Sequence record: KJ909655.1
Length of the DNA stretch: 61,137 nt
Strand: one strand, 5' to 3'
From: Escherichia Stx1-converting recombinant phage HUN/2013
The number at the start of each line of letters is the position of its first letter. The stretch's first letter is position 1. A program made the position numbers. Shown here piece after piece: positions 18,001 to 24,000 of the stretch.

Positions 18001-21000
18001 ATGTTGTTGGTGGTGTGCTTGGTGCATTCAGCCCGATTGGCAGTGAGACGTCGGAAACACTGTCCGGGGCATTGCTGAAAAATGCAGCGCCGACCATTCT
18101 GCGTCCGTTTGCGAACCTTGCCATGAATGAAAACTTCATGGGGGCGCAGATTTACCAGGAGAACATGCCGTTTGGTACACCAAAACCTGACAGCCAGCTG
18201 GGAAGACGTTCAACGCCAGAAGCGTACAAGGCGTTTGCATCCTGGCTGAATGCGTTCTCAGGTGGCAGCCAGTACCGTCCCGGCGCGGTGGATATCACAC
18301 CGGAATCGCTGAAATTCTGGATTGACTATATCTCCGGAGGGACAGGGCGCTTCATTTCCAAAACCACGGATGCGGCGGTGAAATCGCTGAATGGTATTGA
18401 TATACCGGAACAGCAGGTGCCCTTCCTGGGGAAAATTTCGGGGGAGGTGATGCCGTATGCAGACCAGCAGAAGATGTACGACCGGATGACAGAGATTGCG
18501 CAGTATCACGCAGAGCTGAAGAGTCTGACCGGTGCAGAAAGAACGGCGTTCATTGACGAGAACAACGGAAAATTGTCGATGAACGGGCTTATGCAGGATA
18601 CCCGGAAGAGACTGAAGGATTTGCGTAAACAGCGTGATGCCATTTACGCCGACAGTACTCTCAGTCTGGCGCAACAGTCGGCGATGGTGAAATCGGTAGA
18701 GCGGGATATGAAAATTGCCGTGGATCGGTTTAACCGCGAGTACAACAAAAAAGTGGGAGTGGATTAACAGAAATGGCCCCGTACGGAAGTGCGGGGCTGA
18801 TTAAGAAATAAACACTCATTGACCTGTAATAACCGGAGCTATTAACATATAGTCAGAAGAGCATTTCATGTGATACAGAGAGCCGATTTATGTTTAATGA
18901 AGAAAAAGTTGCGCAAATGGCAGCGTATTTGCTGAAAAAGCATGGCGGATCTATGCGTTTCATTAAGCTGAAGCAGCAACGGTAATGGCGAATAGCATTT
19001 ATGAGCAAAATAATCTTGATATGTTATTAGGCGATCTGATGTAACCGGGATGATGTTCACCCCTTATCGCCGGGGAACAATACCGGCAATCAGAATTGCG
19101 GATGGAACTATTCAGGCCCACGATGATATCGATGAGGAGTTTTTTCAGCCAGTATTGGATGGCTTTCTTATATCCAAATATACGCCATTTGACATCCTCC
19201 ACGCCCTGAAGGACGGGGTTTTACAGCGCACCGGATAAGATTCGGTGTTTTGTTGAAAAATACTGTGATAACAAACAGAAAACCCGTCAGTAAGACGGGC
19301 TTAGCAAGCTGGGACGGTTACTTTAATAATTTCAGTGCCTTTACATCCACTTCAACACTGCTCAGGTCTTTATCAATTTCACCCTCAATTCTTACTTTGT
19401 CTTTCGGAGAAACATTCTGCCCGGCCCATATGCTGTCATCGATATCCGTGACAATTGTCCCGCTATTGTCACGAAACTCATAACGTTCATCACCCACTTT
19501 TTTAACGATGCTCCCTTCAAGGATAACCCATGCATCATCCTTCAGTTCTTTTGCCTGCGCTACTGTTGAACGCTCTGCTTCAGGCCCTTGGAAACCGCCC
19601 TGCTGTGCAAAAGCGCCAAAAGACACACCAGAAATAAGTGCTGCAATCAATACCTTTTTCATTCATAGTCCTCTTTCAGAGATGAACATTCAAACAGCAT
19701 TTTCAGTATGGTAAAGCGCGGGTGCGTTGAGGATGCCTGACACATCAGAGGTGGCGGGAGATTACTCCCCCGCTTGGTCTCTTACTTCTCAGATTCGTAG
19801 TCTACGAAGACAGCGACCTCCGTCTGACCGGTTCGGATTCGCACCTCGCAGAGGTCTTTCCTCGTTACCAGTGCCGTCACTATGACGGTTAAACAGATGA
19901 CGATCAGGGCGATTAACATCGCCTTTTGCTGCTTCATAGCCTGCTTCTCCTTGCCTTTCGGCACGTAAGAGGCTAACCTACATGTGTTCAGCATGGATTG
20001 AGCCTCAGATTAATGTTAAGCGTCTTGCCGGACGCGTAATGTTAACTGGGGCTTTTCTCTATCTGCCGTTGGTGTTCATGCCCGAGGCAGATAGCCTCAA
20101 GCACCCGCAGCAATTCTACTTAACTCTCCTTTTCCCGCAAACCGTTTTTATCTCCAGCGACAAATCGAATACACAACCAGCACCACCGCCATTACTGTTC
20201 CTACATTTGCGAATGCTTCAGGCCAGGTCATTGATTCACCTTCTGCTCAATATTTTTAAGGTCATTTTCCGCATACAGTATTGCAGTTCTTGCTGCCCGC
20301 AACCGTGCTTTGGTGTTCTTTTCTTCACGCTCGAGGCTGGCAACAGATTCTCGGAGCTGATCGTGTCTGTTATGAAGCTGTCTAATCTCTCTCACCACAG
20401 CCTCACCATCGTTCGCACACCGCAGAACATACTGAAAAGGGTCCACAACACATCCGCACTGCAAGCACAGGATAACGTGATCCTGTTCATGAACCTCAAT
20501 GGCCCGATGCTTACAGCTCTGTTGTGTGTAGTTTTTTCTGCCAGTTACTGTAATGTTCAGCAGCTTCTCTTCATCGCGCTTTGGCTGCACCAGTGTGATG
20601 ATATTATCGCCTTCATTTTCCATCAGTTCACCTCCTGCGGCGGTTCTGGTAGCGGCATCCAGTGTGACGGTTTCCACGACGCACCAGGAATTATCCACCC
20701 ATCATTAGCGTCAGGATGCCCCGGGATGTAAGTCGCCCACTTCATTCGCCAGTCACCTTTCCTGTCAAACTCCACGGCAACAAGAACGGCTGTTTTGGTA
20801 TCCGGCATTCGCTCACTACAACTTATCCAACCATCCGGAGTTACCGGAGAGTTGCCAGACAGCGCATTCTGCAACCGTTCCAGCTTAACGTATTCCTGAA
20901 CCCTGTTTCCGTCGCACGCCTGAAGCCATTGCTCAGCCTTTTGCGCATCAGTGTGAAAGGCACAAGTGCGACCGTCATCAAATTGCATTTCGTAGAGGTT

Positions 21001-24000
21001 AGCAATCTGTTCAAACTGCGTGTGTGGCAACTTGTAAGTTTGGCTTACGAGTTCGGCTTCCAGTTCTGCTATGCGCTTCTCTGATGCTTCAAGTAACGCC
21101 TGCTTATCGCGTAGCGCTTCTTCCAGTTCAGCAACATGGCATTCACTATCAATAAGGTTGTTCTCTGCTGCTCCCAGCTCAACTCTCAGCTTCCCAACCG
21201 TAAGCGCAATCTCCTCGTTCTCCTGGTCGCGGCGTTTGATGTATTGCTGGTTTCTTTCCCGTTCATCCAGCAGTTCCAGCACGGTAGCCGGGTTAGCCTC
21301 TGCTATGAATTCAGCGTTGCATAAGCCTGAGCATCTGTTTCAACCAGGCAGTTAACATGACATTCTGCAATCACGCCACCGGGTTCTCCTTTCCATTTTT
21401 GGCAAACAAAAACTCCTGTTAAATTGCCGTGCTGGTTAACAGATGTATGCCCTACGATGTAGCTTCCTTTAGTTGCTTTCTCTGCCTTTTCACGCAGTGC
21501 CTGATAGTCAATCTTGCTCATTTTTCTCTTCACTCCGGTATACAAGGATTACTACGCCCCCTCTGCTAATTGCGCGAGCTGGATCCCCTGGTTCCATGCC
21601 GTCAATACCGAAGGCTTCGAAAAATGCATCTATTGCCTTTTGGCGTTGCTCCTGCTTACGGCGTTTATTCCATTTTTTCATGAACAACAGTGACAGCCAT
21701 CGTCCGCTGCAGAACATGATGTAGAAATAACCAAGGAGCGCTAGGCCGGTGTTCAGGGCTGTATCGATCGTTATCGTGGTGTTGATGTTCACTTCACACC
21801 TCTCTGTTTGTTGATAAGTTCAATATCCTGCTGGCAACTGGCGCAAGCTCTGCATCCACGAACAGCCAGGCGTCGCCGCTCATCTATCGGATCGCCACAC
21901 TCGCAACAATGAGTAGCAGATGGGGCATTACTATCGGATTTGTATTTTTGCAGGGAGAGATTGCGCTGCAATTCTTCGATTTCAGCGGCGTTGTCGATGA
22001 TATCTGCCATTTTCCTTTCCTTCAGGCATGAAAAAAGGAGCCGAAGCTCCTTTGGTTTTAGAATTCGAATTGCCTTGCCCGCAGGCTTTTCAGCATTGGT
22101 CTGGCCCGCTGAACTACGAAACTCGACTGGTCAAGCCGTGCCGCCTCTCTCAGTAGCACATCTCTGTTCTTCGTCACCATGTAGATGGTCTCAAACGCAA
22201 TGTCATACAGCTTGTTCGTGTATGAGGAGTTCAGCTCTTTCATGATCGGATACAGGTGTTTGCTGAGGTCCTGGGCTTTTTCCATCCAGAGTTGCATGTA
22301 GCAGAGGAGGATGATTTCCTCGTCTGTGAATTGTTGCTGTGGTTCTGCTTGTGCCGACTGCATGTTGCGAAGTTTCTTTTCGCACTCGATGAAGTATCTG
22401 CGTATCTGTCGGCCTTTTTCGTTACGCTCTACCATCGCCGTTTCTTTGGCTGTATCGAGGGTAAGGTGGTAGTCTTTTTTCCCTCGCCCATAACCTATTT
22501 CCCGTTTCTGGGAAATAGCTATATAGTCCTGATTTTCAACGAATCCGTACTCTTCAATACGTTCTGTAATCCACGATGCAAAGCGTTTACCTACTCCAAG
22601 AAAAGTATGTAAATCACGGGCATTAACGAGAAGAGTGGTTTCGTTGGCGATAGTGCCGTTGAATACGGGGATGAGTTGACTGGTCATGATGACCTCCTTA
22701 TTTGTTTAGTTTATAACCGCCAGTTAGTAGCTGGCGGTCGGGTGTCAACTGAGCCAAATAAGAAGCTCTGGGCATATTCCCCTTGCGGGTGTTGTATTAC
22801 GCCTCTCCACCCGACCTTTGTACGGATGTAACTATGCCAAATTGCAGGCATAAAAAAGCCGCAAAGCTATCGGGTGCGGAGACCGCTTATTTGTTCAGTG
22901 CGGTCAGTATGCGATAGCTCTGGAGGATTTGTCAATCAGCGGAATATTGATGAACGGGTAACGGTAAATGCCTCATCCAGAAAATTAACGCAAATTCGCA
23001 TCGCAAACTTGCGTTAATTATCTGAAATATCAAGTTAAATCCCCTTAAATGTTTGGGGCACTATTGGGGCAAAATGTGGTTGTTTGGGGCATATTTGGGG
23101 CAAAAAAGAACGTATAAAGAACGGTGTAAAATTGATTTCTTCATGGTCAAAATGAGGTGTAACAGATTGAAAAATATATGCTCTTGGACGATCTTCGGTA
23201 ATTCTGTGTTTTTAATGCTTCATGGTTTCAACATGTCTAAGGATATGGTTTATCATTTTGAAAAATATAATTTTATTTCATCCTCCTGGTCACTTTGGGG
23301 CACGTCTGGGGCACGGGCATTAAGGACATTATTCAACATGGCAACTTGAGTCACGCTGCACTCAGGCATCCATGCACCATAAACATTGTAGACCATGCTG
23401 GCGCTGGAGTGCCCCATCTGTGATGCAATAAATGTCGGGTTTGCTCCGGAAGATAAAGCCCAGCACGCATAGGTATGGCGTGACTGATACGCTTTACGGG
23501 ATCGGATACCCGCTCTTTTTATTGCTGAATCCCATGTCGCTCCGATGGAGCTTACCGCGTAGTTAATACCCGCCTTGTGATTCTTGCGAACGATTTGCGG
23601 ACAGAAAACAAAAGTGCACTCGTGCAAAATTGTTCTTCCGTACTCGCGTAATTGAACAGTGATCTGATGCTGCCTGCTAAGACGAGTAAGCATCGCCTGG
23701 TTTTTAAGTGCTTCAATTGCTGGTGCCAGAAGATGTATAACCCGGTTAGTGCCTGCGTCGGTCTTTGGTAGCGTAAAATCACCTATTTTTGTAAAATTTC
23801 GTCGCACTGTTATCGTGCCAGCTTTCAGGTCGATATCCTCCCATGCAAGTGCGGCAATTTCACCGTGTCGCATCCCTGTAAAAACAGCCACTGTCCAGAG
23901 GTTTTTGGTCTGTTGATGATGGCAGGCATCAATGAGACGGCTAAACTCATCTCTGGTCAGTGGATCCGGCACTGGTTTTGATTTCCTCAGCGGTGTTATT

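Follow-up and report, generated by a model that had tools for sequence, protein, structure and literature searches.

Two Ea22 cassettes on either side of attP in a Shiga toxin 1 phage: a frameshifted V2-type gene and a repeat block as probable substrate for repair and deletion

The genome of Escherichia Stx1-converting recombinant phage HUN/2013 (KJ909655.1; 61,137 nucleotides [nt], analyzed as a whole and called the window) carries two cassettes of a TraR-like and an Ea22-like gene that are in direct orientation, 6.6 kilobases (kb) apart, and flank attP-int-xis. Judged by its sequence, the window can be placed among the lambdoid stx1 Shiga toxin (Stx) phage genomes of the 933W / VT2-Sakai (Sp5) type. 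From 19000 to 23237 its sequence matches, with 100% identity, the right end of Sp5, a prophage of E. coli O157:H7 Sakai (1246154-1308861 in Sakai), up to the boundary adjoining ymdF/rutG, and the cassette referred to here as copy 1 is found at this right end. The stx1A/B genes at 43893-45200 (i.e., the toxin genes at ~43.9-45.2 kb) show 100% identity to the same genes in the Morioka Stx1-converting phage (AP005153). The attP core (23225..23231) was transferred from the misc_recomb feature 'attachment site' of AP005153 (locus offset 11559), whose depositors place the core 22 nt below the end of int, and int (23253-24587, minus strand) was taken over from the same annotation by offset. Copy 2 (27327-28318) occupies the classical lambda exo-xis position, and its upstream neighbors are annotated in AP005153 as lambda orf61, orf63, orf60a and exo-like. 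Copy 1 (20623-22010) is located past attP; integration puts it at the extreme right of the prophage, ~55 kb away from copy 2 and adjoining hok/sok-like and YdeI-like genes. Matches to both the AA and the AAA allele of a short run that distinguishes the two Ea22 copies (see below) were found in one 60,942-nt VT2-Sakai contig of IMG/VR, which places both copies in one phage genome, and the genomes of VT2-Sakai, the Morioka Stx1 phage and 933W each hold both. Because single phage genomes carry both copies, an origin of the copies from two adjacent prophages with int between them was ruled out; int and attP merely lie between them on the circular map.

All the genes of the two cassettes are on the minus strand. 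The gene order of copy 1 is Ant, TraR, DUF4752 and an Ea22 gene with a DUF551 C-terminus. Its first gene, adjoining attP (attR in the prophage), is an antirepressor gene (Ant; 22058..22687) with AntA and P22_AR_C domains (PF08346, E 3.7e-27; PF10548), which equals ECs_1251 of Sakai. It is followed by an intact TraR/DksA-type zinc-finger gene of 73 amino acids (aa; 21789..22010; PF01258, E 1.5e-7; ECs_1250 / WP_000763353), by a DUF4752 gene of 94 aa (21508..21792; PF15944, E 1.7e-39) that is part of 'arrangement f' in AP005153, and by an 899-nt Ea22 gene (20623..21521). Copy 2 consists of a second TraR/DksA-type zinc-finger gene of 73 aa, which is the counterpart of lambda orf73 (28097..28318; PF01258, E 7.7e-9), and an intact 257-aa Ea22 gene in the exo-xis position (27327..28100; PF13935, E 2.6e-35). 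Ea22 proteins from Stx phages were sorted into mosaic variants V1, V2, and V3 (Sci Rep 2024, PMC10834534), and V1 and V2 are described there as sharing the N-terminal and coiled-coil part (Ead_Ea22) and having unrelated C-terminal domains, with DUF551 only in V2. By that description, copy 2 is V1-like, with a V1-type C-terminus, and copy 1 is V2-like.

Membership in the protein families was assigned from hidden Markov model matches above the gathering score. Both TraR proteins match PF01258 (31.8 and 35.8 bits; cut-off 24.9), begin with MAD-I/L-I-D and keep D3, D6, and the Cys pairs. The DUF4752 protein matches the entire model (134.2 bits; 1-84 of 84), with which the name given by the Prokaryotic Genome Annotation Pipeline (PGAP) agrees. 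The copy-2 Ea22 protein scores 122.5 bits against PF13935 (cut-off 27; model positions 1-128), and the copy-1 matches to this model are divided between an N-terminal fragment (40.2 bits; positions 1-56) and a C-terminal fragment (50.2 bits; positions 69-139). DUF551 (PF04448) is found in 20623..21282 (76.8 bits; model 1-68 of 68) and in a separate protein of 207 aa encoded at 25634..26257 on the minus strand (83.6 bits; E 1.8e-23). A preliminary description of this DNA had a TraR-like/Ea22-like pair occurring twice, which agrees with the PF01258 match in both TraR genes and the PF13935 match in the Ea22-like gene after each; the range that it gave for the copy-1 pair (21520-22010) needs correction, as it contains TraR and DUF4752, and the Ea22 part is 20623-21545.

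A repeat finder and global alignment delimited the block common to the two Ea22 genes at 21069..21521 in copy 1 and 27647..28100 in copy 2, which are identical at 433 of 454 positions (95.4%) with one gap, close to the ~440 bp of ~95% identity described earlier. A match of this size cannot be due to chance. The longest perfect tracts common to both blocks are 140, 73, 57, 43, and 29 nt. The TraR genes lie outside the 95% block, and the identity of their DNA is 74% overall and 81% in the 3' half. The copy-1 insert of ~270 bp reported as missing from copy 2 was also found; it is 271 nt long (21522-21792), and its open reading frame (ORF) encodes the DUF4752 protein. Three records of 2002-2003 (AP004402, AP005153, and AP005154) annotate the same repeat as 'arrangement c/d/e/f, regions II and IV', and the window does not differ from this annotation in structure. 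In AP005153, block c has a length of 435 nt in region II and of 436 nt in region IV ('Arrangement c; region IV', which is the copy-2 block of the window); region II is arranged as cfe (with the DUF4752 segment) and region IV as cde. In Stx2 phage I, both regions are cde. The records belong with publications by Sato and colleagues.

The DUF551 3' end of copy 1 had been considered nearly identical to that of 25634..26257. This was not the case, as the two are ~63% identical in DNA overall and have in common only a 58-nt patch (91%; 20801-20858 / 25824-25881) and a 39-nt patch (97%; 20626-20664 / 25643-25681), which are our repeat families D4 and D5, with a diverged core between them. These edge patches resemble the sequences that mark module boundaries in the annotation of phage Sf6 ('bsq3; boundary sequence').

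The frame of the copy-1 Ea22 gene is interrupted at 21317..21318, where its coding strand has AA; AAA is found in copy 2 (27895-27897) and in the intact orthologues, and copy 2 is one uninterrupted frame. Alignment, reading frames and Pfam matches all confirm the earlier claim that a 1-bp deletion parts the Ea22 N-terminus from the DUF551 C-terminus in copy 1. The N-terminal frame extends over 72 codons from ATG at 21521 to TAG at 21305-21303. The remainder of the gene, which includes PF13935 positions 69-139 and the complete DUF551, is in the other frame and consists of 219 codons from GTG at 21282 to TGA at 20623. For the identical sequence PGAP gives 'ead/Ea22-like family protein, frameshifted'; thus, the split of the copy-1 V2 gene is not new to the databases. 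With intact orthologues of 299 aa, the PGAP flag and no recoding signal, the gene would be classed as a frameshifted-paralogue pseudogene, and V2 Ea22 has most likely lost its function in this lineage.

The distribution of the two alleles was determined with a 52-nt probe, for which every 28-mer seed spanned the AA, in 5,426 complete E. coli genomes and in phage records. The frameshift allele was found at 100% identity over the probe in 79 of the 5,426 genomes, which were mostly O157:H7 but also included O111 and others, and likewise in 31 phage records, among which are VT2-Sakai, Stx2 phage II, the Morioka Stx1 phage, the PA series, and vB_EcoS_P22/P32. These records range from the VT2-Sakai, Sakai, and Morioka-phage entries of 1999-2003 to recent complete assemblies and come from many laboratories. 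Whether related phages carry fused or split versions had been left as a check by the preliminary description, and both kinds exist. The split version is present in VT2-Sakai/Sp5, Stx2 phage II, the Morioka Stx1 phage, and the PA series. A fused intact gene of 900 nt, which encodes a 299-aa Ea22-DUF551 protein and directly follows the TraR-like gene without DUF4752, is present in 933W (L0140) and Stx2 phage I (ORF-35c), which have 2 differences in the 1118 nt of this stretch. A copy-1-type allele covering at least 80% of a 461-nt query was found in ~95 complete genomes, ~77 of them frameshifted, from which we estimate by subtraction that roughly 18 genomes carry an intact copy-1-type allele. 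Among 112 IMG/VR contexts, the AA allele is always on the full copy-1 background of single-nucleotide polymorphisms (SNPs), with Ant, TraR, and DUF4752 upstream in 4 of 5 contexts (i.e., wherever the flanks are visible). The intact AAA allele also occurs on the full copy-1 SNP background (locus L079; haplotype 111111111I11...), which makes the AA deletion the derived mutation. In POCJ13, Ant, TraR, and DUF4752 are accompanied by an intact Ea22 gene of another type. The same Ea22-DUF551 gene is broken in Min27 (NC_010237; positions 1564-2465 of locus L116) by a 2-nt CC insertion near window 21034, and the downstream ORF is split too; in this single record the break may be independent decay or a sequencing error.

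At the 21 sites distinguishing the window copies, 52 combinations were observed in the IMG/VR contexts (loci L003-L113), which indicates that recombination within the Ea22 N-terminal and coiled-coil block is probably very frequent across phages. In a six-way alignment, region II of Stx2 phage I agrees with window copy 1 at all aligned positions throughout the 5' half of TraR and again between about 21186 and the gene's end; from about 21888 to about 21260 it agrees at all aligned positions with its own, copy-2-type region IV. The copy-2-type tract, which includes the missing DUF4752 and the third A, is a replacement tract with homologous ends. Mosaic recombination, as suggested in the preliminary description, is therefore supported by clean replacement tracts, by the shuffled SNPs and by a natural crossover product that is described below.

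A full-length copy-1-type TraR beside DUF4752 occurs in POCJ13 as well, so the chimeric TraR of 933W is the derived state. We infer, as the simplest history, that the Sakai-type arrangement came first and was followed by a non-reciprocal exchange from copy 2 in the 933W lineage. In 933W and Stx2 phage I, a copy-2-type tract that begins in the 3' half of TraR and extends to about 21260 would have restored the frame, giving the 299-aa Ea22-DUF551 protein, and removed DUF4752; in the VT2-Sakai lineage, including the window, the loss of one A from AAA would have turned the V2 Ea22 gene into a pseudogene, and the allele would have become fixed. The 454-nt block of 95% identity would be kept similar by homologous recombination and would itself serve as recombination substrate, with RecA or phage Red as the presumed enzymes. 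The opposite order, with the 933W type (fused and without DUF4752) as the ancestral one and a patch of TraR-3', DUF4752, and Ea22-N imported into the Sakai type, the deletion arising then or later, seems unlikely to us, even though possible donors exist in which DUF4752 is followed by an intact Ea22 N-terminus of the copy-1 haplotype. Such a patch must start exactly at the TraR chimera junction of 933W and thereby recreate the POCJ13-like copy-1-type TraR, and the tract in Stx2 phage I is identical to its own region IV, which is the signature of recent intragenomic conversion.

We regard it as improbable that the split gene is functional as it stands, with an N-terminal fragment of 72-80 aa and a 219-aa coiled-coil-DUF551 protein (starting at GTG 21282, ~20 nt after the TAG) both being made and acting separately; the fragments could, for example, co-assemble with the intact V1 Ea22 via the common coiled coil. 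Such a role would accord with lambda Ea22 being reported as a tetramer with a long coiled coil in PMC10834534, with the annotation of two genes (ECs_1248 and ECs_1247) by the Sakai depositors, both ORFs being intact past the shift, and with an allele that is unchanged in the 79 genomes of several serotypes and in Stx-converting phage genomes. The only in-frame restart downstream is, however, GTG 21282, which has no usable Shine-Dalgarno sequence, the closest GAGG being poorly placed 14 nt upstream; PGAP calls the gene a pseudogene, the Min27 record has the same gene broken elsewhere, and allele identity of 100% fits recent clonal spread equally well as selection. The split copy-1 Ea22 gene appears to give no functional product. 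Several of the split-allele records were deposited as Stx-converting phage genomes and not as prophages, which suggests that the split gene is dispensable for phage propagation.

It is far less probable still that programmed -1 ribosomal frameshifting or transcriptional slippage restores the full-length Ea22-DUF551 protein. The geometry, a single-base shift with a short frame overlap, would allow it, but the 37-nt frame-overlap window (21339-21303), which is the sole window where a ribosome shift could work, contains neither an X XXY YYZ slippery heptamer nor any homopolymer of at least 4, and the relatives reach the full-length protein via the extra base and not via a conserved shift site. 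The deletion had been described as lying within a T-run that was a possible slippage site; it is actually a difference between TT and TTT (AA and AAA on the coding strand) outside any homopolymer tract, and slippage at this position is unsupported. Mononucleotide runs that are slippage-prone (phase-variable) typically have 7 or more bases. With a run of 2 nt (3 nt in the paralogue) and an allele that is invariant in the 79 genomes, the site does not behave as a phase-variable homopolymer. A sequencing or assembly artefact that hides two intact paralogues, an objection that the preliminary description had raised against itself and that could draw on the general rate of single-base indel errors, can for practical purposes be excluded as far as the databases go, because the identical allele recurs across years and many laboratories in the 79 complete genomes and 31 phage records, and a 2- versus 3-base run is no error-prone context.

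A synthetic junction query for the crossover between the two blocks picked up the bovine strains OkiPb01700 and OkiPb01680, which have only ~6.2 kb of phage DNA at wrbA, in the order ymdF, attR, Ant, TraR, DUF4752, Ea22 (frameshifted), five small genes, xis, int, and wrbA. Full-length wrbA prophages of ~61 kb are present in 2014C-3061 and 13E0780. The Ant-side half of the Oki remnant is 100.0 and 99.8% identical to the right ends of the 2014C-3061 and 13E0780 prophages, respectively, and the int-side half is 99.9 and 100.0% identical to their left arms. The right-end Ea22 gene of 2014C-3061 is the same 899-nt frameshifted DUF551 form. At the positions shown by the comparison, the remnant Ea22 gene is the same as window copy 1, including the AA, down to 21115, and copy-2-type from 21085. 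When the remnant was aligned to both 2014C-3061 copies, it agreed fully with the right-end copy up to the switch and differed from the left-arm copy by one SNP beyond it; the switch point fell in an interval of 29 nt located at the 3' edge of block c (window 21114-21086, minus strand), in which the window is identical to OkiPb01700. The deletion amounts to 55,148 bp. A crossover within the block of a wrbA prophage of the same design would have deleted the 55-kb interior and left the int-xis...Ant remnant.

The case for this crossover rests on the flanks and the matching parent-type prophages. The arrangement in SCPM-O-B-7615, where Ant, TraR, DUF4752, and an intact Ea22 gene with a V1-type C-terminus are contiguous in the early leftward operon of an argW prophage, is native, and the idea that every such Ant-TraR-DUF4752-Ea22 (V1 C-terminus) series is a crossover product was therefore discarded. 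Nor do we claim the Oki event as a loss of stx: the 2014C-3061 prophage has no stx genes, so that no toxin loss is documented. In the papers searched, no description of an Oki-type wrbA remnant as joined prophage ends was found, and the O157 comparative-genomics papers among them mention neither Ea22 nor a wrbA remnant. The exo-xis Ea22 gene in the left arms of 13E0780 and 2014C-3061 (positions 5805-6386 of loci L121 and L122) is rearranged at its N-terminus and called 'incomplete' by PGAP; hence, both Ea22 copies of this phage type are damaged.

In general, a crossover between the blocks would remove the phage interior (i.e., replication, lysis, structural, and, where present, toxin genes) and leave a ~6-kb int-xis...TraR-Ant element that keeps both att sites, while in a non-reciprocal exchange the frameshifted copy would be overwritten and thereby repaired, as happened in 933W. 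It is fairly probable that the Ea22 blocks constitute an integrase-independent route for prophage decay and repair, of which the Oki remnant is the first natural example traced to the repeat.

Paralogous cassettes, a V2 pseudogene, and a block that serves as substrate for repair and deletion are together the best explanation of these observations as a whole, to which we would assign a probability of about 85%. Several points weigh against it. The predicted deletion product of the window's own pair was found, at coverage of at least 80% of the synthetic junction query, in no place in the 5,426 genomes, and the natural example is a single one, one event in two near-identical strains that involved a related stx-negative prophage. 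Because the SCPM-O-B-7615 arrangement is native, hybrid-looking genes alone prove no crossover. The direction from the Sakai type to the 933W type is an argument from parsimony only. The frameshift alleles are all 100% identical over the probe and thus give no signal of decay or selection either way, and either fragment of the copy-1 Ea22 gene may yield a product at a low level.

Given that the copy-1 genes are all on the same strand as int, leftward early transcripts that pass through int and attP in the circular phage would continue into Ant, TraR, and DUF4752. After integration, the copy-1 block would be cut off from the leftward transcripts at the other prophage end and would need a promoter of its own. 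A TTGACA-18-CATACT match is present at 22935-22906. In the promoter and terminator scans, shuffled sequence yielded at least as many sites. Directly upstream of both TraR-like genes, on the minus strand, there is a GC-rich hairpin with a T-run after it, at 22031-22052 (AAGGAGC-TTCG-GCTCCTT + TTTT) and 28378-28396 (AGGGAGC-TAC-AGGCTCCTT + TTTT). From their sequence and placement, these hairpins are probably a conserved terminator-like element within the leftward operon. TraR copy 1 and DUF4752 are both intact and may still act.

Some further observations concern the surroundings of the cassettes. A YgiW/YdeI-like OB-fold gene and a hok/mok-type toxin gene (19318-19994) are located just past copy 1, with sokW annotated at the matching place of 933W, and they are preceded by an ORF of 2806 aa (10347-18767) that PGAP names LPD38 domain protein. 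The distance from copy 1 to stx1 is ~1.25 kb greater in the window than in AP005153 (offsets 8664 vs. 7417), which implies an insertion or module difference at about 31000-43800. ARAGORN found no tRNA gene across the whole window; at the equivalent place, the 2014C-3061 prophage has tRNA-Ile/Arg/Arg and no stx. Copy 1, attP, and int are contiguous in five records (e.g., NZ_CP044141.1, NZ_CP133131.1, and NZ_CP028685.1), which would be circular phage replicons or tandem prophages; their span is 9.1 kb compared with 5.7 kb, and the frameshift allele is doubled in three of the strains.

The duplicated, partly broken Ea22 cassette is real and was for the most part rightly described by the preliminary description; it is ordinary lambdoid mosaicism, already annotated publicly. 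What is added here is the exact conversion tract between the 933W and Sakai types, its repair of the pseudogene, and one natural repeat-mediated prophage deletion of 55 kb. The current view of lambdoid phage mosaicism is unchanged, and the value of these results lies mainly in annotation and interpretation. The V2 (DUF551) Ea22 of VT2-Sakai-type Stx phages should not be counted as a working gene, which matters for work in which two Ea22 variants are counted per genome or 933W is compared with Sakai phages. As 933W and the Sakai type differ in the presence of DUF4752 and the intactness of Ea22-V2, they are a natural pair for testing accessory genes. The repeat is a demonstrated substrate for large wrbA prophage deletions and bears on the origin of stx-negative derivatives and small remnants.

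Two Ea22 variants (V1 and V2) are listed for VT2-Sakai, 933W, Stx2 phages I and II, PA5, PA27, PA45, and F422 in PMC10834534, where Ea22 is also described as pro-lysogenic. The word 'frameshift' does not occur in the paper, and its passages on the variants mention neither the V2 split in VT2-Sakai-type genomes nor the position of V2 beyond attP. Like genes with programmed frameshifts, such as the IS3 transposase gene, for which a pseudoknot is annotated, the copy-1 Ea22 gene consists of two overlapping frames that are one base out of register; it is nevertheless no member of this group, as it lacks a slippery heptamer, a homopolymer, and a conserved shift site, and its intact relatives have an extra base. 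Phage lambda has not been described with a second cassette beyond attP, and according to PMC10834534 the C-terminal domain of its Ea22 is unrelated to those of the Stx-phage Ea22 proteins. The order of genes in copy 2 is the same as that of the lambda exo-xis region, with exo, orf60a, orf63, orf61, the TraR-like gene, and Ea22. Lambda Orf73, which is a TraR homologue, binds RNA polymerase, inhibits rRNA and ribosomal-protein promoters, raises phage yield, and is inactivated by the D3A/D6A mutations (PMC9239242); both TraR proteins of the window keep the D3 and D6 of Orf73.

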